This document shows, in pieces, positions 1 to 36,119 of a stretch of 39,600 nt of DNA. Source of the stretch: Squalus acanthias (lineage: Eukaryota); assembly GCA_030390025.1 (NCBI GenBank), contig JASTWF010000331.1:496001-535600 (forward strand), given 5' to 3'. The translations under genes and the position numbers were made by a program. Under the pieces are notes generated by a model. The model did not search any database, had not been told where the DNA came from, and was given only the letters and a program-made list of their open reading frames with translations. Positions within the stretch are counted from its first letter, which is position 1; each line of letters opens with the position of its first letter.

Positions 1-312
1 TTTTCCATACAGACTGCATTTGACACATTAGACCCCCTGTGACCCCACCTCATTGTCTCAGTTGTATTTTGCTATGTCTTTGATATAATGTCTTCCTGAG
101 CTGATTGTCTCTCTGCTGAGGTGTGACGAAAGGCAGTCAGAAGGATTAAATGTAGTCGTCTGACATTGTACGCTACACATGCATTGTTCTCTGTCTATAT
201 ATGCTTTGCGAATTCGTATTCCTTCACTTCACCTGACGAAGGGGCAGCAGCTCCGAAAGCTTGTGAATTCAAATAAAACAGTTGGACTATAACCTGGTGT
301 TGTGCGACTTCT
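1..312 (+). mobile_element. 3' terminus (pLTR/3'UTR) of a Penelope-like element
   Basis: Similar to 34050-34276, which directly follows a PLE RT/GIY-YIG ORF. Both share CCTGACGAAGG..GCTCCGAAAGCTTGT..AAATAAA..GTTGGACTATAACCTGGTGTTGTGCGACTT. Confidence 0.85.
228..267 (+). ncRNA. Minimal type-I hammerhead ribozyme (PLE-type)
   Basis: Stem I TTCAC/GTGAA, core CTGACGA, stem II GGGGC-agca-GCTCC, GAAA, palindromic stem III AGCT, cleavage triplet CUU. Confidence 0.85.
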
Positions 313-431
313 CAATGATGAACTCTTCACTTCCATAGAATACTGTCTTTAACTTTCCACCCAGTATCAGATCTTTTGAGCGTTCTGAATATTTACTCAG
401 CACAATTTCTGCCACGTATACTATGCTGTCT

Positions 432-2686: not shown

Positions 2687-3208
2687 AGCTTAAGCGCTCA
2701 AGAGGTGCGATATCTCGAAACCTGTTTATAAAATAGCCATTGACTATAACTCGAATCCGAGTTCATGTTGCAGCTCCCTTCAATAAGCTATAAGGAAGTG
2801 TATGAAGTGAATTATCGTAGTGGATCGCAGACGGGGGTCGGATTGAGGGAACGTTCGATGGAGTGGTTGCAGTCGGACGGGGAAGGGAAAGTTCAGCTTC
2901 CTGTGTGGCGGGGTCAGGTGGATGCAGGCTCGGAAAAAGGTGGGGGTACAGTGCGGACTTGGCTGGGGTGCGAGGGTCCCTGGCTGCCCCGGGGCGGTTG
3001 ATTGGATTCATTGCGCTTGGCGCTGGTTACCGAGTTCGGTCCCCAAGCACCCGGCCCCGGATTAGTATTCCTCTGGAACCGTTAGTGCAGGATCCGCGCT
3101 GCCCCGCAGCCGCTCCTTGGAATGTGCAGAGTCGCCGGCCAACAGCTTTTCCAGAAACTTCTGTTTCATTAATGCTCAGTAAAACAACGTGTGACTGGAA
3201 GTAGGAAC

Positions 3209-3471
3209 CTCCCCGCACAGACTGTGAGACAAACTGTCCTCTCCCCATAGAGACTGTGAGACAAACTGACCCCTCCCCACACATACTCTAAGACAAACTG
3301 TTCCCTCCCCACACAGACTGTGAGACAAACAATCCCCTCCCCACACAGACTGTGAGACAAACTGTCCCCTCTCCACACATAATGTAAGACAAACTGTCCC
3401 CTCCCCACACAGACAGTGAGACAAACTGTCCCACCAAAGTCTGTGGGACAAACTGTCCCCCATCGCCCCAC
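3209..3471. repeat. 32-bp minisatellite, about 8 units
   Basis: Unit CCCCACACAGACTGTGAGACAAACTGTCCCCT; GAGAC recurs at 3226 and 3258. Confidence 0.92.
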
Positions 3472-4150: not shown

Positions 4151-5048
4151 TTATTTAACTAATTTAATAATAAGTCTGAATGGGTATTTCGCCGTTTTCT
4201 TCAGCTCTTCCCTGAATTTAGCCTGGGTGATGACATAGATACATGTGTTGGTGCAGGAACTGAGTAGCTGCAGCATCACTCCGGTCCTTTCAGTGATATA
4301 TAGAGGGTCGTGGGTGGAGTAATGATAATTGTTTGTAATTCGCTGATAGGTGTAGAATACAATTTCTGTCACCCATAACAGTATGAAACTGCCGGATATA
4401 CTGAAGAGTAAGACGATGGATTTCCTCCGGTTCTCCATCTCTGGATCCTCCTGATTCTCTCCATTGCTGCGGCCCCGGAGTCCCCTGCGGACACTACTGG
4501 CTGCTAAAATGTGCCTGGCGGTGAGAACATTGAACAACAAAACGAAAACAAAAGGGAGGCACGGGGTTACAATATAAAACGTTAATTCAAATGCTGCCCA
4601 TGTGGGCGAGATGTAAAAGCTTCGTTTTCTCGAGCAACCCAAGGCACAGTTCCAATGATATGCTGAGGTTCGTATGTAAAGTACCAAGGTACAGATTTTA
4701 TACAGCCCAGCACACTCACTGTTCCGATAACCACAGCCGCAGTTTTCCCGGTGCAATATTTGTTTTTCAGCTTCTGGCAGCAAATGGCCACAAATCGATC
4801 AAAGGTGAAAGCAACTGTGAGCCAGACAGAAATCACCGTGGTTGCAAAAACCAGCACAATATTCAGAGAACACACGAAAGTAATGGAGAGGAAAGAACGT
4901 GGGAAAAAGATGTCTGCTAACCGCCACATCAGCACCTCAGTGACGAGGACCAGGAGATCGGCCGCTGCCATGGCCACCAAGTATCGGGTGATACACTGGG
5001 AGAGACCGCACTTACCCCGGGAAAGGATCACAATCGCCATCACATTAA
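4151..5048 (-). pseudogene. Class A GPCR, GPR139/GPR142-like, main coding exon with one frameshift
   Basis: Two overlapping ORFs give TM1-TM7: AIVILSRGKCGLS, YLVAMAAADLL, TVAFTFDRFVAIC, PEMENRRKSI, SSCTNTCIY, stop at 4151. Splice acceptor tttttctctctcttacAG (AG at 5050-5049). Frame switch at GGG 4638-4640. Confidence 0.88.
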
Positions 5049-5649
5049 CTGTAAGAGAGAGAAAAACGGCACGGGAAATTACACCTCAGACGTCCAACAA
5101 AATAATTGGATTAACGGGATCGTGTGCGAAATATAGAGGAGAGTTCTTGCACCCAATGGAGAAAACTGACAACGCCGCTTTCACAAGTCTTGACAATGAG
5201 ATCTCCGGCACATTGCTTCCTATCCGCCCAGAATCACCTACCCGATCATTAATGGAAGTCTGAGGGGCTCATGCTGACACGGATAGGTGGAATCTCAATA
5301 TAGGTTGAGAAGGGCGAAGGGACCAATGCAGATTGGGCTGGAGGTGCGACTACTGCAGACACGGGATGGGGAGGGGATGAACAGGCAGAGAAGTGTGAGG
5401 TCCAACCCAGACTGAAGGGAGGGTGGAAGACTGATGCAGACAGAATAGGGTGAGATCCATGCCAGGCAAGGGGAGAGTGACGGACTAATGAAGAGGAGGG
5501 TGGGTTCAATGCAGACCTGCGAAGGGTAGGGTCAAATACAAACTGAGGTAGGCTGGGGGTCCAATGCAAACCAGGGAAGGTTGCCGGACTAATGTAGACA
5601 GGGGAGAGTGGGGGAAGAATGCAGAAACTGGAAGAAAGGGGCCCGATGT

Positions 5650-7130
5650 AGAGAGTGGAGGGTGGGGTTCCATTACAGACAGTGGAGACTGGGGTCCATT
5701 ACAGAGAGGGGTGGGGGATTAATACAGAGAGTGGAGGGTGGGGGTCCATTACAGACAGGGGTGGGTTATTAATGCAGACAGTGGAGGGTGAGGGCCCATT
5801 ACAGACAGGTGAGGGGGATAAATGCAGACAGAGGAGGAAGTGGGTACATTACAGACAGGGCTGCGGGATTAATGCAGACAGTGGAGGGTGTGGGTCCATT
5901 ACAAACAGGGGTGGGGGATTAATGCAGACAGTGAAGGGTGTGGGTCCGTTACAGACAGGGGTGGGGGATTAATGCAGACAGGGGAGGGAGTGGGTACATT
6001 ACAGACAGGGATGCGGGATTAATGCAGACAGTGTAGGGTGAGGGTGCATTACAGACAGGGGTGTGGGATTAATGCAGACAGTGAAGGGTGTGGGTCCGTT
6101 ACAGACAGGGGTGGGGGATTAATGCAGACAGGGGAGGGAGTGGGTACATTACAGACAGGGGTGCGGGATTAATGCAGACAGTGTAGGGTGAGGGTGCATT
6201 ACAGACAGGGGTGTGGGATTAATGCAGTCAGTGGAGGCAGTGGGTACATTACAGACAGGGGTGGGGGATTAATGCAGACAGTCGAGGGAGTGGGTACATT
6301 ACAGACAGGGGTGGGAGATTAATGCAGACAGGGGAGGGAGTGGGTACATTACAGACAGGGGTGCGGGATTAATGCAGACAGTGGAGGGAGTCAGTACATT
6401 ACAGACAGGGATGTGGGATTAATGCAGACAGTGGACGGTGAGGGTCCATTACAGACAGTGTTGGGGGATTAATTCAGACTGTGGAGGGTGTGGGTCCATT
6501 CCAAACAGGGTTGGGGGATTAATGCAGACAGTGGAGGGTGTGGGTCCATTACAGACAGGGGTGGAGTATTAATGCAGACAGTGGAGAGTGAGGGTAGAAT
6601 ACCGACAGGGGTGTGGGATTAATGCGGACAGTGGAGGGTGTGGGTCCATTACAGACAGGGGTGGAGTATTAATGCAGACAGTGGAGAGTGAGGGTAGAAT
6701 ACCGACAGGGGTGTGGGATTAATGCGGACAGTGGAGGGTGTGGGTCCATTACAGACAGGGGTGGGGGATTAATGCAGACAGTGGAGGGTGTGGGTCCATT
6801 ACAGGCAGGGGTGGGGGCTAAATGCAGACAGGGGAGGGTATGGATCCATTAAAGACAGGGGTGTGGGATTAATGCAGACAGTGGAGGAAATGGGTTTATT
6901 ACAGACAGGGGTGGGAGATTAATACAGACAGTGGAGGGTATGGGTCCATTAAAGACAGGGGTGGGGGATTAATGCAGGCAGTAGAGGGTGTGGGTCCATT
7001 ACAGACAGGGGTGCGGAATTATTGCAGACAGTGGAGAGAGAGGGTACATTACAGACAGGGGTGGGGGATTAATGCAGACAGTGGAAGGTGTGGGTCCATT
7101 ACAGAAAGGGGTGGGGGATGAATGCAGACC
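5650..7130. repeat. 50-bp G-rich minisatellite, about 29 units
   Basis: AATGCAGACA or close variants recur every 50 bp from 5771 to 7121; unit GATTAATGCAGACAGTGGAGGGTGTGGGTCCATTACAGACAGGGGTGGGG. Confidence 0.97.
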
Positions 7131-13270: not shown

Positions 13271-14649
13271 ATTGTATTTACTGGTAATGGGGGTGAGGAC
13301 AGAGACTGTTTATCCAGACAGTGTGATTATTGGATATGGTGGTGTGGGCAAAGACAGTTTACACGCGCTGAGTTTTTACTGGTAATGGGGGTGTGGTGAG
13401 AGACAGCTTATACACAGAGTATGTTTACTGGTAATGGGGGTGAGGTGAGCGACGGTTTATCCACAAAGTGTGATTACTGGTAATGGGGGGTCAGGACAGA
13501 GACGGTTTATCCACAAAGTGTGATTACTGGTAATGGGGGTGAGGTAAGAGACGGTTTATCCACAAAGTGTGATTACTGGTAATGGGGTTGAGGTGAGAGA
13601 CGGTTTATCCACACACTGTGTTTACTGGTAATGAGGGTGTGGTGAGATACAGTTTATCCGCAGTGTGTTTCCTAGTAATGGGAGTGTGGTCAGAGACGGT
13701 TTCTCCACACAGTGTGTTTCCTGGTAATGGGAGTGAGGACAGAGACGGTTTATCCACACAGTGTGTTTACTGGTAATTGGTGTGTGGTGAGAGACGGTTT
13801 ATCTGCAGTGTGTTTACTGGTAATGGGAGTGAGGACAGAGACGGTTTATCCACACAGTGTGTTTACTGGTAATGAGGGTGAGGACAGAGATGGTTTATCC
13901 ACACAATGTGTTTACTGGTAATGGGGGTGAGGACAGAGACGGTTTATCCACACAGTGTGTTTACTGGTAATCGGGGTGAGGACAGAGATGGCTCATCCAC
14001 ACAGTGTGTTTACTGGTAATCGGAGTGAGGTGAGAGACGGTTTATCGGCAGAGTGTTTACTGGTAATGGGGGAGAGGACAGAGACGGTTTATCCACAGTT
14101 TGTTTACAGGTAATGGGGGTCAGGGCACAGACGGTTTATCCAAACAGTGTTTTTACTGGTAATGAGGTTGAGGACAGAGACGGTTTATCCACACAGTGTG
14201 TTTACTGGTAATGGGGGTGTGGTGAGAGACGGTTTATCCGCAGTGTGTTTCCTGGTAATGGGAGTGAGGACAGAGACGGTTTATCCACACAGTGTGTTTA
14301 CTGGTAATGGGGGTGAGGTGAGAGACGGTTTATCCACACAGTGTGTTTACTGGTAATGGGGGTGATGTGAGAGGCGGTTTATCCACACAGTGTGTTTACT
14401 GGTAATGGGGGTGAGGTGAGAGACGGTTTATCCACACAGTGTGTTTACTGGTAATGGGGAAGAGGTGAGAGGCGGTTTATCCACACAGTGTGTTTACTGG
14501 TAATCGGAGTGAGGTGAGAGACGATTTATCCACACAATGTGTTTACTGGTAATGGGAGAGCGGACAGAGACGGTTTATCCACACAGTGTGTTTACTGGTA
14601 ATGGGGGTGAGGACAGAGACGGTTTATCCCCATTACCAGTAAACACACT

Positions 14650-15430
14650 GGGCTGGATTTTGTCTTGGGGTCGGATTAGGGTCGTGTCATCCGCATTTGG
14701 TGTTTCCCCCCCCGACTCCAGATTCATGTGGATGAATGATGCAATTTTCACTTAATTGGGCAATTGAGTCCCAGCATGTGGGAACCCACAAACTAATTAG
14801 TGGTTTCAGTCTGAAAGTCGCCTCTGATGATGTCATCATTGCTGACTGCATAGTCTCAGAGACTGGTGGTGAGAGAGGACCTGCCTGGCTTGCTTTTGAT
14901 GTGAGTGGACCTGGATGCAAAATATGGGGGGCGGGGGAGAAGGAGAGAGAGAGAGAGAGAGAATGAGAGAGATATTTTTTTTTGCATCCAAGTCCTCTCA
15001 CAGCAAAGGCCAGGCAGTCTCTGAACACATTCAATGCAGCAGCGCCGACTTTCAGACCTAATACTACTACTACCTTCATCACATCTCCGTTGTAATTATG
15101 GACCTGCAGCTGATAGTCAGCTATCCACTTGTGCTCCCGCCAGGTTTCACTGGAGTGTTTCACACCGGGTGTACTTCACGTCACAAAAGGGTTAAACGAG
15201 CTAAAACGTTTCAAAATGGCATTACAGAGCCACTGGCGAGCTTGTTAAGGGCTTTAATGGCCTCTCCCGCCTCTTGGAGACGGGACGGAGTCGGGAACCC
15301 CGCGGCTGATTTTGTCAAAATTGCGTGGAGGCGGGATGGAGTCGGGATGGGGTCGGAAACACCGACCCCGAAAATTTAACCCCCCACACGCCTCCAAACC
15401 CGACTCCGTGGGTCATTCAAAATGCAGCCC
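14650..15430. mobile_element. MITE copy 2
   Basis: GGGCTGGATTTT...AAAATGCAGCCC; homologous to copy 1 (CCCAGCATGTGGGAACCCAC, GACCTGCAGCTGATAGTCAGCTATCCA); internal (GA)n. Confidence 0.85.
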
Positions 15431-17021
15431 TATTTAGCACACAGTGTGTTTACTGGTAATGGGAGTGAGGACAGAGACGGTTTATACACACAGTGTGTTT
15501 ACTGGTAAATGGGGGTGAGGACAGAGGAGGTTTATACACACAATGTGTTTATTGGTAAATTGGAGTGAGGACAGAGGAGGTTTATCCACAGTGTGTTTAC
15601 TGGTAACGGGGGTGAGGAGAGAGACGATTTATCCACACAGTGTGTTTACTGGTAACGGGGGTGAGGACAGAGGAGGTTTATCCACAGTGTGTTTTCTGGT
15701 AATGGGGGTGAGTACAGCGACGGTTTTTCTATACAGAGTCTTTACTGGTAATGGGGGTGAGAACAGAGACTATTTATGCACACAGTGTGTTTACTGGTAA
15801 TCGGGGTGAGGACAGAGACCGTTTATCCTTACAGTGTTTTTCCTGGTAACGGGGTGAGGACTTACAGCGTTTATCCACACAATGTTTATCCTGGTAATGG
15901 GGGTGAGGACAGAGACGGTTGATCCACACAGTGTGTTTACTGGTAATCGGGGTGAGGACAGAGACGGTTTATCCACACAGTGTGTTTACTGGTAATGGGT
16001 GTGAGGACAGAGACGGTTTATCCACACAGTGTGTTTACTGGTAATGGGGGAGAGGAAAGAGACGGTTTATCCACACAGTGTGTTTACTGGTAATGGGGGT
16101 GTGGACAGAGACGGTTTATCCACACAGTGTGTTTACTGGTAATGGGGGTGAGGACAGAGACGGTTTATCCACACAGTGTCTTTACTGGTAATGGGAGTGA
16201 GGACAGAGACGGTTTATCCACACAGTGTCTTTACTGGTAATGGGGGTGAGGACAGAGACGGCTTATCCACACAGTGTGTTCACTGGTAATGGGGGTGAGG
16301 ACAGAGACGGTTTATCCACACAGTGTCTTTACTGGTAATGGGAGTGAGGACAGAGACGGTTTATCCACACAGTGTGTTTACTGGTAATCGGAGTGAGGTG
16401 AGAGACGGTTTATCCACACAGTGTGTTTACTGGTAATGGGGGTGAGGACAGAGACGGTTTATCCACACAGTGTGTTTACTGACAATGGGGGAGAGGAAAG
16501 AGACGTTTTATCCACACAGTGTGTTTACTGGTAATGGGGGTGTGGACAGAGACGGTTTATCCACACAGTGTGTTTACTGGTAATGGGGGTGAGGACAGAG
16601 ACGGTTTATCCACACAGTGTCTTTACTGGTAATGGGAGTGAGGACAGAGACGGTTTATCCACACAGTGTCTTTACTGGTAATGGGGGTGTGGACAGAGAC
16701 GGTTTATCCACACAGTGTGTTCACTGGTAATGGGGGTGAGGACAGAGACGGTTTATCCACACAGTGTCTTTACTGGTAATGGGAGTGAGGACAGAGACGG
16801 TTTATCCACACAGTGTGTTTACTGGTAATCGGAGTGAGGTGAGAGACGGTTTATCAGCAGTGTGTTTACTGGTAATGGGGGTGCGGTGAGAGACGTTTTA
16901 TCCACACAGTGTGTTTACTGGTAATCGGAGTGAGGTGAGAGACGGTTTATCCACACGATGTGTTTACTGGTAATGGGGTTCAGGACAGAGACGGTTTATC
17001 CCCATTACCAGTAAACACACT

Positions 17022-17355: not shown

Positions 17356-18285
17356 CTACTCTGGCCTACCACTAATCTTCGCCATTTTGTATGCGTTTTC
17401 TTTTAATTTGATACCATCCTTAACTTCCTTAGTTAGCCATGAGTAGTGCATCCTTCTCGTGGAGCCTTTCTTTCTTATTGGAATACACCTTTGCTCTGAT
17501 TTATGAGATATCTCCTCAAAGGTCTGCCACTGCTGATCTACCGTCTTACCCTTTGATCTATTTTTCCAGTCCAGTTTAGACAACTCTGTCCTCATAACCT
17601 TGTAGTTGCCTTTATTTAAATTTAGGACACGAGTTTCAGACCCAAGTTTCTCAATCTCAAACTGAATTTGAAATTCTACCATGATATGATCACTCTTTCC
17701 TAGGTTTCCTTTACTATCATTATACATTACCAGATCTAAAATAGCTTGCTCCCTGGTTGGTTCCTGAACGTATTGCTCTAAGAAACCATCCCTAATACAC
17801 TCCATGAACTCGTCATCAAGGCTACACCTCCCAATTTGATTTTTCCAATCTATATGATGATTAAAATCGCCCATGATTATTGCAGTACCGTTCTTACAAG
17901 CCCTCATTATTTCTTGATTTTTACTCTGTCTTACAGTATAGCTACAGTTAGGGGGCCTATATACTACTCCCACCAGTGACTTATTACACTTACTATTTCT
18001 TATCTCCACCCAAACTGATTCTACATCTTGAGATTCTGAGCCAATATCATTCCTCACCATTGCAGTGATCTCATCCTTTATTGACAGAGCTACCCCAATT
18101 CTTTTTCATTTGTGCCTATCCTCCAAAATGTCAAATACACTGAATATTCAGTTCACAGCCTTGGTCAACTTGCAACCACGTCTCTGTAATGGCTATCGGA
18201 TCAAACCCATTTATTATATTTGTGCCATCAACTCATCTATCTTGTTAAGAATGCTGCATATATTCAATAAAGAGCCCTTCATTTT
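17356..18285 (-). mobile_element. CR1 LINE ORF2 APE endonuclease fragment
   Basis: ESVWVEI..GVVYRPP..IIMGDFN..PTREQAILDLV..LGKSDH. Confidence 0.92.
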
Positions 18286-18289
18286 AAAT

Positions 18290-19850
18290 TAACATAAGAA
18301 TTAGGAGCAGGAGTAGGCCATTATGCCCTTCGAGCCTGCTCCGCCATTCAATGATACCATGGCTGATCATCTGGCACAAATCCATTCGTCGGCCTTATCG
18401 CCATCTCCCTTGATGCACTTACTAGTACGAAATATATCGAATTTTGTTTTGAATATACCCAATGACTGAGCCTCCACAGCCCTCTGGGGAAGATAAGTCC
18501 AATTATTCACGAACCTATGTGTGAATAAATTTCTTCTCATCTCAGCCCTGAATGGCCTCCGCTTTATCCTGGTACTATACTGCCCAGCCATGGAAAACAC
18601 TCTCCCAACATCCACCCTATAATAATTTTGTATGCTTCAATGAGATCCCCTCTCATTCTTCTGAAATGACGCGAATACAGGCCTAGTTTACTCAATCTCT
18701 TCTCATACGACAGTCCTGCCATCTCAGGGATCAATCTCGTGAAACTTCGTTGCACTCCCTCTAAGTCAAGTATATCCTTCCTTAGGGAAGGAGAACAAAA
18801 TTGTAAACAATACTCCAGATGTGGTCTCACCAAGGCCCTATATAATTTGAGTAAGACTTGTTTACAACTGCACTCAAATCCTCTTGCAATGAAGGCCAGG
18901 ATACAATTTGTCTTCCTAATGGCTAGCTGCACCTGCACATTCAATTTCAGTGACTCATGTACAAGGAAACCCAGGACCGGTTGAGCATCTGCATTTCTCC
19001 AATCTTTCGCCATTTAGGAAATACTCTGCCTTTCTGTTTTTTCTACCAAAGTGGATAACTTCACATTTATTCACATTATGTTTATCTGCCATGTTCTCGC
19101 CCATTCACCGAGCCTGTCGAGATCCCCTTGCAGCCTCTTCACATCCACTTCATAACTGGCACTGCCACCTAACTTTGTATCATAAGCAAATTTGGAAATG
19201 TTACATTTAGTCCACTCCTCCAAATCATTGATATAGATTGTGAATAGTTGGGTCCCAAGCACCTATACTTGCGGTACCACTATTCGCAGCCTGCCATCCT
19301 GAAAAAGTCCCGTTTATCCCTACTCTTTGTTTCTGTCTGTTAAGCAATTCTCAATCCATGCTTGTATATTACCCCATCCATTTGCCCTATTATTGTTCAC
19401 CAACCTCTTGTGTGGGACCTTATCGAAGGCCTTCTGAAAATCCAGATACATCACATCTACCGCTTTCACTTTGTTTACTCCACTAACTACATCCTCAAAG
19501 AACACCGACAGGTATGATAAACAGGATTTCCCTATCATAAAACTACGTTGATTATGCCCAATCTTATTATTAGCTTCTAAGTGCCCAGTCATTGCATCCC
19601 TTATAATAGATTCCAGCATTTTCCCAACTACTGATGTGAGGCTAACAGGTCTGTAGTTCCCCGTTTTTTCCCTTCCACCTTTCTTAAATAGAGGGTTTAC
19701 ACTAGCTAACCTCCAATCTGCAGGATCCGTTCCAGATTCTACAGCATTTCGGAAGATGACAACCAATGCGTCCACTACCTCAATGGCCACATCTTTCAAA
19801 ACCCTCGGTTGTAGGTCATGCGGTCCTTGGTATTTATCGTCTATCCATTA
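18290..19850 (-). mobile_element. CR1 LINE RT domain and 3' end, decayed
   Basis: GNYRPVSLTSVVGK, YLDFQKAFDKVPH, FTIYINDL..KFAYDTK, VRPHLEYC. Confidence 0.93.
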
Positions 19851-20214: not shown

Positions 20215-20520
20215 TTGTTTCTTTACTTGCCCCATTACCACCCACGATGCCTCGCACCATCATTCTTCTGTCATTCAAGCTCTCCTGCCTTCCCCCATCA
20301 CAGTCCTTTTCTTCAGTGTATTCCTCCCAATCCCCCCTTTCCCTGCACCTGTGGTTCCTGACAAAATCTGTTGTATCGGCCACATTTTCCAGTTCTGATG
20401 AAAGGTGATCGACCTGAAACGTTAACTCTGTATCGCTCTCCCCCCAAGTGCTGCCTGACCTGCTGAGTATTTCCAGCATTTTCTGCTTTTATTTTAGAAT
20501 TACCACAATCCTCAGTATTT
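20215..20520 (+). mobile_element. Penelope-derived terminal fragment (family 2) with hammerhead
   Basis: Homologous to the reverse complement of 35883-36119 (GCTGCCTGACCTGCTGAG..TTCCAGC..). Confidence 0.7.
20391..20427 (+). ncRNA. Minimal type-I hammerhead ribozyme
   Basis: Stem I AGTT/AACT, CTGATGA, stem II AGGT-gatcg-ACCT, GAAA, palindromic ACGT, cleavage triplet GUU. Confidence 0.82.
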
Positions 20521-32380: not shown

Positions 32381-32820
32381 GCAGTACTGAGGGAGTGCTG
32401 CACTGTCTGAGGGGCAGTGCTGAGGGAGCACTACATTGTCGACTGGGCAGTACTGAGGGAGCACTACACTGTCGGAGGGGCAGTACTGAGGGAGCACTAC
32501 ATTGTTGAATGGGCAATACTGAGGGAGCACTACACTGTCAGAGGGGCAGTACTGAGGGAGCGCTGCATTGTTGAATGGGCAGTACTGAGGGGGCACTACA
32601 ATTTTGAATGGGCAGTACTGAGGGAGCACTAAATTGTTGAATGTGCAGTACTGAGGGAGCACTACATTGTTGAATGGGCAGTACTGAGGGAGCACCGTAC
32701 TGTCGGAGGGTCAGTGCTGAGTGAACGCTGAACTGTTGGAGAGGTGTGCCGAATGAGTGATGCACTGTTGGAGGTGCTATACTGAGGAAGTGCTGCACTG
32801 TTGGAGGGGCAGTACTGAGG
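32381..32820. repeat. 33-bp minisatellite, about 13 units
   Basis: Unit GCAGTACTGAGGGAGCACTACATTGTTGAATGG; 11-aa periodicity in the ORF track. Confidence 0.95.
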
Positions 32821-32953
32821 GAGGCCCCAGGAGCAGCTCCACCGAGTGCCCCGTGGGCAGGTACATACGAAAGATCTCAACCCTTCGACTATTCCGAGTT
32901 ACAGGGATGTGTCCAACAATTAAGACCAAACCGTCCACAGACGTGCCCCATAG

Positions 32954-33974
32954 CATCAACAGGTTCCATCCCACCATCAAACTCACCATGGACTACTCCT
33001 CAGAATCGGTTTCATTCTTGGACACACGAATCTCCATCAAAGACGGACGCCTCAGCACTTCACTCTACCGCAAGCCCACGGACAACCTCACGATGCTCCA
33101 CTTCTCCAGCTTCCACCCTAACCACGTTAAAGAAGCCATCCCCTATGGACAAGCCCTGCGAATACACAGGATCTGCTCAGACGAGGAGGAACGCGATGGA
33201 CACCTACGGACACTGAAAGATGCTCTCGTAAGAACGGGATATGACGCTCGACTCGTCGATCGACAGTTCCGACGGGCCACAGCGAAAAACCGCATAGACC
33301 TCCTCAGAAGACGAACACGGGACACAACCAACAGAGTACCCTACGTCGTCCAGTACTTCCCCGGAGCGGAAAAACTACGCCATGTTCTTCGCAGCCTTCA
33401 ACATGTCATCGATGACGACGAACACCTTGCTAAGGCCATCCCCACGCCTCCACTACTCGCCTTCAAGCAGCCGCCTAACCTCAAAAGTACCATCGTTCGC
33501 AGCAGATTACCCATCTTTCAGGAGAACAGCAACCAAGACACCACACAACCCTGCCACGGCAACCTCTGCAAGACATGCCAAATCATGGACACAGATACCA
33601 TCATTACACGTGAGGACACTACCCACCAGGTACACGGTACATACTCATGTGACTCGGCCAACGTTGTCTACCTGATACGTTGCAGTAAAGGATGCTCCAG
33701 AGCATGGTACATCGGCGAGACCATGCAGACACTGAGACAACGTATGAACGGACACCGCGCAACAATCGCCAGGCAGGAGGGTTGCCTCCCAGTCGGGGAA
33801 CACTTCAGCAGCCAGGGGCATTCAGCCTCGGATCAGCGGGTAAGCGTTCTCCAAGGCTGCCTTCGAGATACACGACAGCGCAAAATCATAGAGCAGAAAC
33901 TGATAGCCAAGTTCCGCACTCATGAGGATGGCCTCAATCGCGATATCGGGTTCATGTCACGATACAGAACGTGA
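32954..33974 (+). CDS. PLE reverse transcriptase C-terminus/thumb + GIY-YIG endonuclease (uninterrupted, 5'-truncated)
   Basis: HPTIKLT..VSFLD..YRKPT..SFHP; CxxxxCxxC; VVY-LIRC..YIGET..LRQRMNGH..GEHF..E..GLN. Confidence 0.92.
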
Positions 33975-34194
33975 CTTGACATCATGGCCGGTCTTTCCAG
34001 GTGTTTTTTTTTTATAAAAAGGCTAACACAAGAACACAAATTGACAGGATATGCAGCCAGCAGGTGGTTTGACACGTTGGTCCCCCTGGGACACATCTCA
34101 TTGTCTTGGCTGTGCTCTTTGTTGTAGCGAATAATGTGAATAGATTTTGTCTGGGTTTAAATTGTGAATTCTGGGAGATTCTCTCATTGCTAAC

Positions 34195-34232
34195 TTACCT
34201 GACGAAGGAGCGACAGCTCCGAAAGCTTGTAA
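34195..34232 (+). ncRNA. Minimal type-I hammerhead ribozyme
   Basis: Stem I TTAC/GTAA, CTGACGA, stem II GGAGC-gaca-GCTCC, GAAA, palindromic AGCT, triplet CUU. Confidence 0.87.
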
Positions 34233-35882
34233 AATTAAATAAATCTGTTGGACTATAACCTGGTGTTGTGCGACTTCCCATAGAATTAAGACAGCGTCTA
34301 CAGAGGTTTCGGAATTACCAGCCCAATTTTGAAATCAGTGATATGGAGAAAGTTATTTTGTCCGCTCTTACTTCGGACTTGCGAGCTAGCCTCCCTTTTG
34401 TTATCTTTAACCAAGGTATTACCCTAAACGAGTTAATTAGTGCCTTACAAATAGCTTTGGGAATAGATTACATAGACCTGGGGGAGAAAATCACCAAACT
34501 AAACAGGGTCCCCAGTAATGTCCTGCCGCGATCGGGGACCGATTGTACACTATCTATGAGATGATGCAAGAGATCCCCAATGGTGACGTTTTAAATGTAA
34601 AGAATGAGTTTACTTTTCAGAAGGTGTATCTAAAAAATATAGTCTGCGCTCCGAGCAACCCGCGGTCATACAGTCAAACACAACTCGCCCTGGATTCATC
34701 TACGAGAAGCGAATGCCACGTGGACGTATTTTAAGAATCAGGTCCAGGGTCCCGAGAAGGGAAAACCCGTCCAAGTAGTGGAAGGGCCCCGCGTTGATCC
34801 ATCTGCGCCCCCCTTTAAACATCATCGGTGCGCTATAATTGTGCAAAGGACTGTCGGAACGCTAAATGGCCAGAGTCCGGAACGGGGTGGTCTAACAATT
34901 ACCACCGCTCAAATCCAAACCCTTAAGTAACTTAGAAAATCATAACACGATTAGACAGAGTCAACATGGTTTTATGAAAGGGAAATCGTGCTGGTCAAAT
35001 TTATTAGAGTTTTTTGAGGATGTAACTAGCAGGGTAGATACAGGGTAACCAGTGGATGCTCTATATTTGGATTTCCAAAAGGCATGCGATAAGCTGCCAC
35101 ATAAAAGGTTGTTACACAATATTAGGGTACATGGTGTTGGGAGTAATATAGCAGCATGGATAAAGGATTGGTTAACAGACAGAAAACAGAGAGCAGGGAT
35201 AAACGGATCTTTTACAGGTTGGCAGGCTGTAGCTAGTGGGGTGCTGCAAGGATCAGTGTTGGGGCCTCAGCTATTTACAATCTCTATCAATGACCTAGAT
35301 GAAGGAATCGAGTGTAATTTAAAGTTTGCTGATGATACACAGATTGGTGGGATAGTAAGCTGTGAGGAGAACAGAAAGAGTCTGCAAAGGGATATCGATA
35401 GACTTAGTGAGTGGGCAGTAAGGTGGCAGATGGAGTATAATGTAGGAAATGTGAGTTTATTCACTTTGCTAGGAAGAATAGAATAACAGATATTTTTTAA
35501 ATGGTGAGAAACTTTCAAATGTTGGTGTTCAGAGAGATCTGGGTGTCCTCGTGCAAGAAAAACAGAAAGCTAGCATGCAGCTACAGCAAGCAATAAGGAA
35601 GACAAATGGTATGTTGGCCTTTATTGCAAGGGGGTTGGAGTATAAGAGTAAGGAAGTCTTGCTACAATTGTACAGGGCCTTGGTGAGACCACACCTGGAG
35701 TACTGTGCAGAGTTTTGGTATCCTTATACTTGAATTGGGGGCGGTGCAATGAAGGTTCACTAGATTGATTCCTGGGATGAGAGGGTTGTACTATAATGAG
35801 AGATTGTGTAGAATGGGCCTATACTCTGTTGAGATAGAAGAATCTGAGGTGATCTCATTGAAAGTTATAAGATTCTGAAGGG

Positions 35883-36119
35883 ATAGCAAAATACTGCGGA
35901 TGCTGGAAATCTGAAATAACAACAGAAAACGCTGGAAAAACTCAGCAGGCCAGGCAGCATCCGTGGAGAGAGAAAGAGAGTTAACGTTTCAGGTCGATGA
36001 CCTTTCGTCAGAACTGTGAAGAGCCGGAAATCAAATAGATTTAAGGCCAGAGTAAAGCTGGGAAAAGGGGGAGGGGATAAAAGAACAAAGGGGGAGATGA
36101 AGAGACACTGTCTTCAGAG
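35883..36119 (-). mobile_element. Short hammerhead-bearing Penelope-derived element nested in CR1
   Basis: Flanked by the direct repeat AGATTCTGAAGGG (35870-35882, 36120-36132); homologous to 20215-20520. Confidence 0.82.
35979..36015 (-). ncRNA. Minimal type-I hammerhead ribozyme
   Basis: Reverse strand reads AGTT CTGACGA A AGGTC-atc-GACCT GAAA CGT T AACT. Confidence 0.87.

Follow-up and report, generated by a model that had tools for sequence, protein, structure and literature searches.

Do the differences between two minimal hammerhead ribozymes in the shark Squalus acanthias reflect selection on an RNA fold, or merely the decay of dead repeats? The window considered here, that is, the whole stretch of 39,600 nucleotides that was analysed, contains both motifs, and the original prediction read the changes between them as covariation under selection across two subfamilies of Penelope-like elements (PLEs). 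We hold it very probable that both are minimal type I hammerheads in matching pLTRs, one of them behind a truncated PLE ORF with a Neptune/Nematis-type linker, that they likely represent two fold-selected subfamilies, and that they are now likely inert relics. Support for fold selection comes from public contigs and from relatives in other collections, but not from the two copies themselves, which on their own prove little, as they offer one double change only. The features on which the argument draws are collected in Table 1.

Table 1. Features discussed in the text, in window coordinates unless a metagenome locus is named
Feature	Position	Strand	Remarks
3' pLTR remnant with copy 1	1..314	+	homology to copy 2; runs off the left edge of the window
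Hammerhead copy 1, minimal type I	229..266	+	stem I UCAC/GUGA subfamily; predicted cut after U262
Tail, copy 1	281..311	+	identical to copy 2 tail over 31 nt
Strand-skewed minisatellites	5676-7129, 13273-17001, 32381-32823, 3208-3460		units of 50, 49, 33 and 32 nt
Rhodopsin-family GPCR coding sequence	4151-5085	-	two overlapping frames; 7tm_1 at E=1e-12 in the first part, none in the second
LINE endonuclease and RT fragments	17356-18105, 19320-19847 (-), 35049-35486 (+)		Exo_endo_phos_2, RVT_1
Second minimal hammerhead family	20391-20427 (+), 35979-36015 (-)		GAAA-CG-U-U; stem II closed by A-U, not G-C
Truncated Penelope-like ORF	32952..33974	+	5'-truncated; stop-free over 340 codons
3' UTR/pLTR of the copy 2 element	33975..34280	+	spacer, hammerhead, AATAAA (34238-34243), tail
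Upstream pLTR block	34068..34113	+	common to window 19-65
Hammerhead copy 2, minimal type I	34195..34232	+	stem I UUAC/GUAA subfamily; predicted cut after U34228
Tail, copy 2	34247..34277	+	0/31 sites with a listed variant
Stretch of 650 nt between PLE tail and LINE RT fragment	34281-34930		background contig depth only
Tail motif in relatives	L058:749-800; L073:332-280 (-)		marine-metagenome PLE ends

Both copies share the same build, with a 4-bp stem I, CUGACGA, one extra A, a 5-bp stem II, GAAA, GC, U, U and the 3' arm of stem I. In copy 1, stem I pairs 229-232 with 263-266, and a fifth U-A pair (228/267) extends the motif to the span 228-267; CUGACGA (233-239) and the extra A240 are followed by stem II (241-245/250-254), GAAA (255-258), GC, U261 and U262. 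The corresponding elements of copy 2 are stem I at 34195-34198/34229-34232, CUGACGA at 34199-34205, A34206, stem II at 34207-34211/34216-34220, GAAA at 34221-34224, GC, U34227 and U34228. The G10.1-C11.1 pair is present in both (G241-C254 and G34207-C34220), as is a palindromic AGCU (258-261 and 34224-34227), without a stable helix III. The topology is that of type I with a short helix I of 4-5 bp, and pair probabilities reach 0.55-0.69 in the natural flanks. The catalytic core (CUGANGA and GAAA..UH) is intact in each copy, with no difference at the 12 fixed core sites; the two motifs, their invariant core and the expected cut positions were thus located correctly at the outset.

A strict descriptor run on both strands found four motifs in the window (at 233+, 20395+, 34199+ and 36011-), the copies 1 and 2 and two members of a second family, and none in 300 dinucleotide shuffles of it, which argues that the motifs are not chance. 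An Rfam search, which had been suggested as a check, returned two matches from the window up to E=10, neither of them a hammerhead; the Rfam hammerhead models are blind to the minimal motif. Whole-motif folding gives weak z-scores (-1.44 for copy 1, -3.07 for copy 2), which fall to about zero once the flanks are included.

Where do the motifs lie? Copy 2 stands 225 nt behind the stop codon of the truncated ORF, which includes an RT thumb, a CX5CxxC linker at 33552, a GIY-YIG-type VVY...YIG at 33663 and a CCHH-type motif (33681). This fragment lacks the core RT and gives no Pfam match at E<=0.001, with a single unrelated weak match at E<=1. It is 91% identical over 338 amino acids to P0001, an RVT_1-bearing protein of Heptranchias perlo; a further relative, P0008, also has GIY-YIG. 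Among 1998 candidates there are 20 longer related proteins, and all those with a species name are from sharks. Judged from its linker and motifs, the ORF points to Neptune/Nematis over Penelope/Poseidon. Contigs of three runs together cover the region from the ORF end through spacer and hammerhead to the tail, each reaching over part of it and overlapping with others, and family depth stops at about 34277-34281. The pLTR position of copy 2 is therefore given by the ORF and the contig junction, that of copy 1 by homology to copy 2. The expectation of minimal hammerheads with a palindromic stem III in Penelope pLTRs agrees with this anatomy and with the ORF in front of copy 2.

Three shark gene models, P0009 (residues ~190-230), P0010 and P0015 (septin 5a, XRCC5 and PPP1R12A-like), contain pieces of the copy 2 PLE family. 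The reading frame of P0009 even runs across hammerhead and tail, which shows that the family is present in Scyliorhinus as well and leaks into annotations.

The homology between copies 1 and 2 covers 19-65 (79%) and 226-314 (89%) in copy 1. Between the upstream block and C3 lie 131 nt in copy 2 but 214 nt in copy 1, and these two stretches do not align with each other. This spacer, unlike that of copy 2 in both length and sequence, and the lack of any visible ORF beside copy 1 are what one would expect of a non-autonomous, retrozyme-like repeat derived from a PLE end rather than from an ORF-bearing subfamily; pLTR-related non-LTR retrozymes have indeed been reported, one chondrichthyan being among their hosts (Li et al. 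2026 preprint, 10.64898/2026.07.22.740005). However, if copy 1 is built like copy 2, the end of an ORF would fall some 75 nt before the start of the window, so its absence beside copy 1 is uninformative. The window contains no tandem repeat unit for copy 1; indeed neither copy has a tandem partner there, the two standing 34 kb apart, and there is no further copy of either end. We regard a retrozyme origin of copy 1 as unlikely and retain its assignment to a PLE pLTR. Two candidate features near the motifs were set aside: CATAGAAT, shared directly behind both copies, is a 9-nt match with an E-value of 2.9 and was taken as chance, and a second structured RNA suspected at 105-185 folds no better than shuffled sequence (z -0.22).

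How much can be read from the two copies alone? Over 83 ungapped sites (229-311 against 34195-34277) they differ at nine: two of eight in stem I, one of ten in stem II, two of four in loop II, four of 45 downstream, and none among the 12 fixed core sites or the four other junction sites. In stem I, C230/T34196 goes with G265/A34231; stem II differs by G243/A34209, and loop II reads AGCA in one copy and GACA in the other. If nine differences are placed at random, a clean core has p 0.23, at least one compensatory double change p 0.04-0.05, and the joint occurrence of a clean core, intact stems and a double change a chance of 0.003-0.005, for a motif that was itself picked after the fact for its intactness. 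Such numbers leave room for the view that the copies are dead, their fold is not selected and the changes that happen to preserve it arose by neutral drift: only 9 of 83 sites differ, nine of the 18 possible single transitions in the stems still pair anyway, and at least one double change would arise with p 0.04-0.05.

The stem I change itself is less clear-cut than the C-G to U-A compensation originally proposed. The letters are right and pairing is kept, but BLASTN aligns the 5' arms as ACTTCAC and ACTT-AC, with a 1-nt gap in place of the C/T substitution, so the change may be an indel plus a substitution, equally well aligned, rather than a classical covarying pair. An origin of the double change in CpG decay was rejected by eye, as A follows C230.

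To see how the family varies, we turned to public contigs: those of runs X1, X7 and X8, together with the raw RNA run X21 (four of the 23 listed runs), were mapped to 33880-34340 at 80% likeness, with variants listed from at least 4%. X1, X7 and X8 placed 5992, 834 and 1400 contigs on this region, and X21 placed no reads. At 34231, the G of copy 1 is found in 80, 42 and 40 contigs of X1, X7 and X8, or 5.4, 3.6 and 8.3% of depth. Loose ends at 34197 give a consensus equal to the 5' arm of copy 1 in 26 X1 contigs, and a similar one in 11 X8 contigs. Both arm types thus recur in dozens of contigs, which speaks against drift in two dead copies; they appear to be family traits, and the two forms of stem I probably mark subfamilies, although the contig table gives no haplotypes and the two arms are seen linked on one molecule in copy 1 itself only.

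The G-U to A-U change of stem II fares differently. Its letters, like those of the loop change, were given correctly, but it is a one-sided transition: A34209 has no variant of at least 4% in any of the three runs with data, and one X7 contig with a 5' arm of the copy 1 type has A at this position, so G243 is likely a rare decay of A-U to G-U in copy 1 and not covariation. G243 and two flank sites of copy 1 depart from the loose-end consensus and look like decay, as drift would predict.

Between 34199 and 34228, listed variants fall on four of the five free sites (N7 and loop II) and on one of the 25 constrained ones (Fisher p=0.0009). The tail, with no listed variant at 31 sites, equals the ribozyme in invariance, and clipping hides any mismatch that falls close to the end of a contig; the clean core is therefore not specific to the ribozyme. 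Other variants are less tidy: the outer stem I pair is lost to T34195C, which accounts for 10-15% of depth and has no listed change in its partner, and in X8 a C replaces U16.1 at 7% of depth. Positions 34131, 34227 and 34240 show A>G and T>C variants at 7-13% of depth in X8, guessed to be an RNA run, and hardly any in the two DNA runs; these may reflect either RNA editing or an expressed subfamily.

A wider sample came from metagenomes, scanned with a pattern of the core with GG...CC and GAAAGCTT that left stem I unspecified and covered 44 of 64 parts. The scan found at least 119 loci (about 180 estimated); of 120 listed matches one, cut by the end of its contig, was left out, and the analysis used 108 that were distinct. 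Many of these are chance matches in bacterial-looking DNA. Among the matches listed, stem I reaches at least 3 bp in 32 of the 58 with a stem II of at least 4 bp, against 12 of the 50 without (p=0.0016); when the 3' arms are permuted, the mean is 7.0 and none of 5000 permutations reaches 32, and with one sequence for each of the 11 families the figures are 5.6 against 1.2, again among the matches listed.

Two of these loci, L058 and L073, have the same tail directly after the hammerhead and the end of a PLE endonuclease ORF upstream (61% identity over 135 amino acids between L073 and P0001). They contribute two more stem I double changes, at different pairs and in a part of the motif outside the search pattern. 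Taken with copies 1 and 2, all 32 cells pair, and four of the eight pairs show double changes, three of them in stem I; this was matched by 2 of 500 shuffles, and slid controls pair at 25-53%, in a test of four sequences in which two stem II pairs are imposed by the search pattern and the shuffle ignores relatedness. These sequence comparisons support a fold under selection in the lineage. Together with the recurrent arm types and the stem I statistics among the matches listed, the double changes at separate pairs make pure drift a very improbable account of the differences. Contigs from JAAUYG01, JACKZZ01, MDSQ01/MDSP01 and ERZ1740055 (for example L009, L048, L086 and L091) hold more multi-copy minimal hammerhead families with the same GAAAGCUU junction, and L042 adjoins PLE-like coding sequence. 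Viral contigs gave no match to the hammerhead pattern and no PLE relative.

The tail that follows each hammerhead is likely the 5' arm of a conserved stem-loop, of which neither copy retains the 3' arm. The tails of L058 and L073 fold into a stem-loop that begins with GUUGGACU (z -1.55 and -2.93), and a loose-end consensus of X7 contains, beyond 34281, the exact complement of this arm; the ends of both window copies thus fall within the tail loop. In this model the loop is a candidate start site of reverse transcription. Both copies end 49-53 nt past a cut site that is itself intact, so the template RNA was evidently uncut or re-ligated.

Several leads concerning the tail were abandoned. The tail pattern matches one viral and ten prokaryote-genome loci; in none of the 11 is the match preceded by a hammerhead or accompanied by a PLE ORF, and these were dropped. 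L123, L124, L125 and L130, a repeat in Coprobacillus/Eubacterium MAG contigs, likewise carry the pattern with no hammerhead or PLE ORF and were taken as unrelated. In L058 and L073 the tail could also be read as holding a short intron (GT...CAG, 32-34 nt), a reading set aside since the hairpin pairing accounts for the same letters. An intron of 32-34 nt would be too short for a vertebrate.

Would these hammerheads cleave? The computed energy of the catalytic dimer is -19.9 and -18.7 kcal/mol for the two copies, against -20.8 and -19.6 for two open monomers, and non-catalytic co-folds reach -28.1 and -25.1 kcal/mol, one of them locking A14 and U17 in an AAGCUU duplex. By these folding energies, from a model that leaves out tethering and tertiary contacts, the catalytic dimer is not favoured. 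CUU ranks last among NUH triplets (PMC8879150), the Schistosoma motif is inactive as a monomer with low activity as a dimer (PMC4209133), and a review describes the minimal motif in the same terms (PMC6765202). Lone copies such as those of the window would thus probably show little self-cleavage, or none.

Published PLE work suggests how the motif may operate in a living element. Where a transcript holds two motifs in tandem, their palindromic AGCU sequences would join in a 4-bp helix III, an assembly likely aided by the element's own protein, and slow cleavage after CUU would follow. The RNA that serves for insertion would for the most part escape cutting or be re-ligated, and the reverse transcriptase would begin some 50 nt further downstream, in the tail stem-loop, so that both copies would carry an intact hammerhead and the same short tail. 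By analogy, both end positions are in line with internal RT initiation on uncut RNA as in PAc of Anolis, in which reverse transcription starts in the downstream stem-loop and thereby yields the tail (PMC11167929).

The same observations can be turned against cleavage altogether: selection may act on the fold because the PLE end binds protein, serves as a promoter or is recognised by the RT, with cleavage incidental or absent in vivo. PAc with a mutated hammerhead core inserts normally, and no RNA-seq reads begin or end at its cut site (PMC11167929). The weak CUU triplet, the unfavourable dimer energies, the genomic copies with an intact site and a tail conserved as much as the motif all fit such a role. 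It accords poorly with the identity of all 12 fixed catalytic positions in both copies and with a family in which N7 and loop II alone vary freely, and the PAc motif does cleave, though only once the protein of the element is added (PMC11167929). On balance we think this alternative unlikely, and keep to a fold selected as a hammerhead.

A more elaborate reading, which we consider improbable, would join hammerhead and tail stem-loop into one two-part RNA module kept from the shark PLE to L058 and L073. The tail hairpin would then mark the RT start, as both window copies end in the loop, and the stem I switch would bar good mixed dimers (-13.0 kcal/mol computed for the mixed-subfamily dimer, against the values above for like pairs), providing subfamily-specific RNA self-recognition.

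The window also contains a GPCR sequence that is likely a frameshifted pseudogene and a 33-nt minisatellite array about 130 nt before the truncated PLE ORF, and many more LINE-like pieces are scattered across it. The two copies of the second hammerhead family are 84% alike over 131 nt, with no PLE ORF beside them within the window. The 650-nt stretch behind the PLE tail holds three short frames with no Pfam match at E<=0.05. Co-option of the motifs as regulatory ribozymes at the two loci has nothing specific in its favour beyond matches of ORF and pLTR pieces to contigs of X8, the run guessed to be RNA. The family is high-copy, its copies here are truncated and lie amid old LINE fragments and minisatellites, neither has a canonical helix III or a loop-loop extension, and copy 1 is apparently decaying; co-option is hardly credible, and inert PLE relics remain our interpretation.

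How do these elements compare with known systems? PAc, a Poseidon-type PLE of Anolis carolinensis (Frangieh et al. 2024, PMC11167929), shares the order of pLTR hammerhead and short tail, and its genomic copies keep the uncut site, as expected if reverse transcription starts in the downstream stem-loop. In contrast, the shark ORF has a CX5CxxC linker, which Penelope and Poseidon lack as described in PMC8557442, and the start codon of PAc's own ORF sits inside the hammerhead (PMC11167929), whereas the 5' end of the shark element lies outside the window. The Neptune and Nematis EN+ PLEs (Craig et al. 2021, PMC8557442) have in common with it a C-terminal GIY-YIG with CCHH, a CX2-5CxxC linker and a pLTR hammerhead, a likeness in motifs. 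The non-LTR retrozymes (10.64898/2026.07.22.740005) also carry a type I hammerhead from PLE pLTRs, but they are tandem ORF-less units; both window copies are solo and copy 2 is joined to an ORF, so that neither forms such a unit within the window, the upstream part of copy 1 lying outside it. In the literature accessible to our search, nothing specific to shark Penelope hammerheads appeared beyond a review.

Since the shark elements are so numerous, fall into two stem I types and share a conserved tail hairpin, the family could be used to test the role of the PLE hammerhead (to cleave, to circularise or to ride along), a purpose for which the two truncated copies of the window are themselves unsuited. 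The closest match is the PLE min-HHR class, known since 2014, whose consensus families show covariation and compensatory changes (Cervera and de la Pena 2014, PMC4209133). Shared with it are type I topology, CUGANGA with an extra nucleotide before 10.1, G10.1-C11.1, GAAA, the palindromic 15.2-16.2 without a helix III loop, a short helix I, a 3' pLTR position behind an RT-EN ORF and many truncated solo copies; compensatory variation within and between families is present here too, in a small sample and against a shuffle that ignores relatedness. The GAAA-GC-U-U junction also occurs in the Chrysemys and Philodina rows of the published alignment, whereas the species rows of Fig. S3 (supplement parts 1-2) include no cartilaginous fish, and the shark family and its tail are absent there (PMC4209133). 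The window therefore adds a shark Neptune/Nematis-type family to this class, little on its own: the covariation and every other feature of the motifs had already been described for PLE min-HHRs in 2014, and the shark hammerheads are ordinary members of that class.
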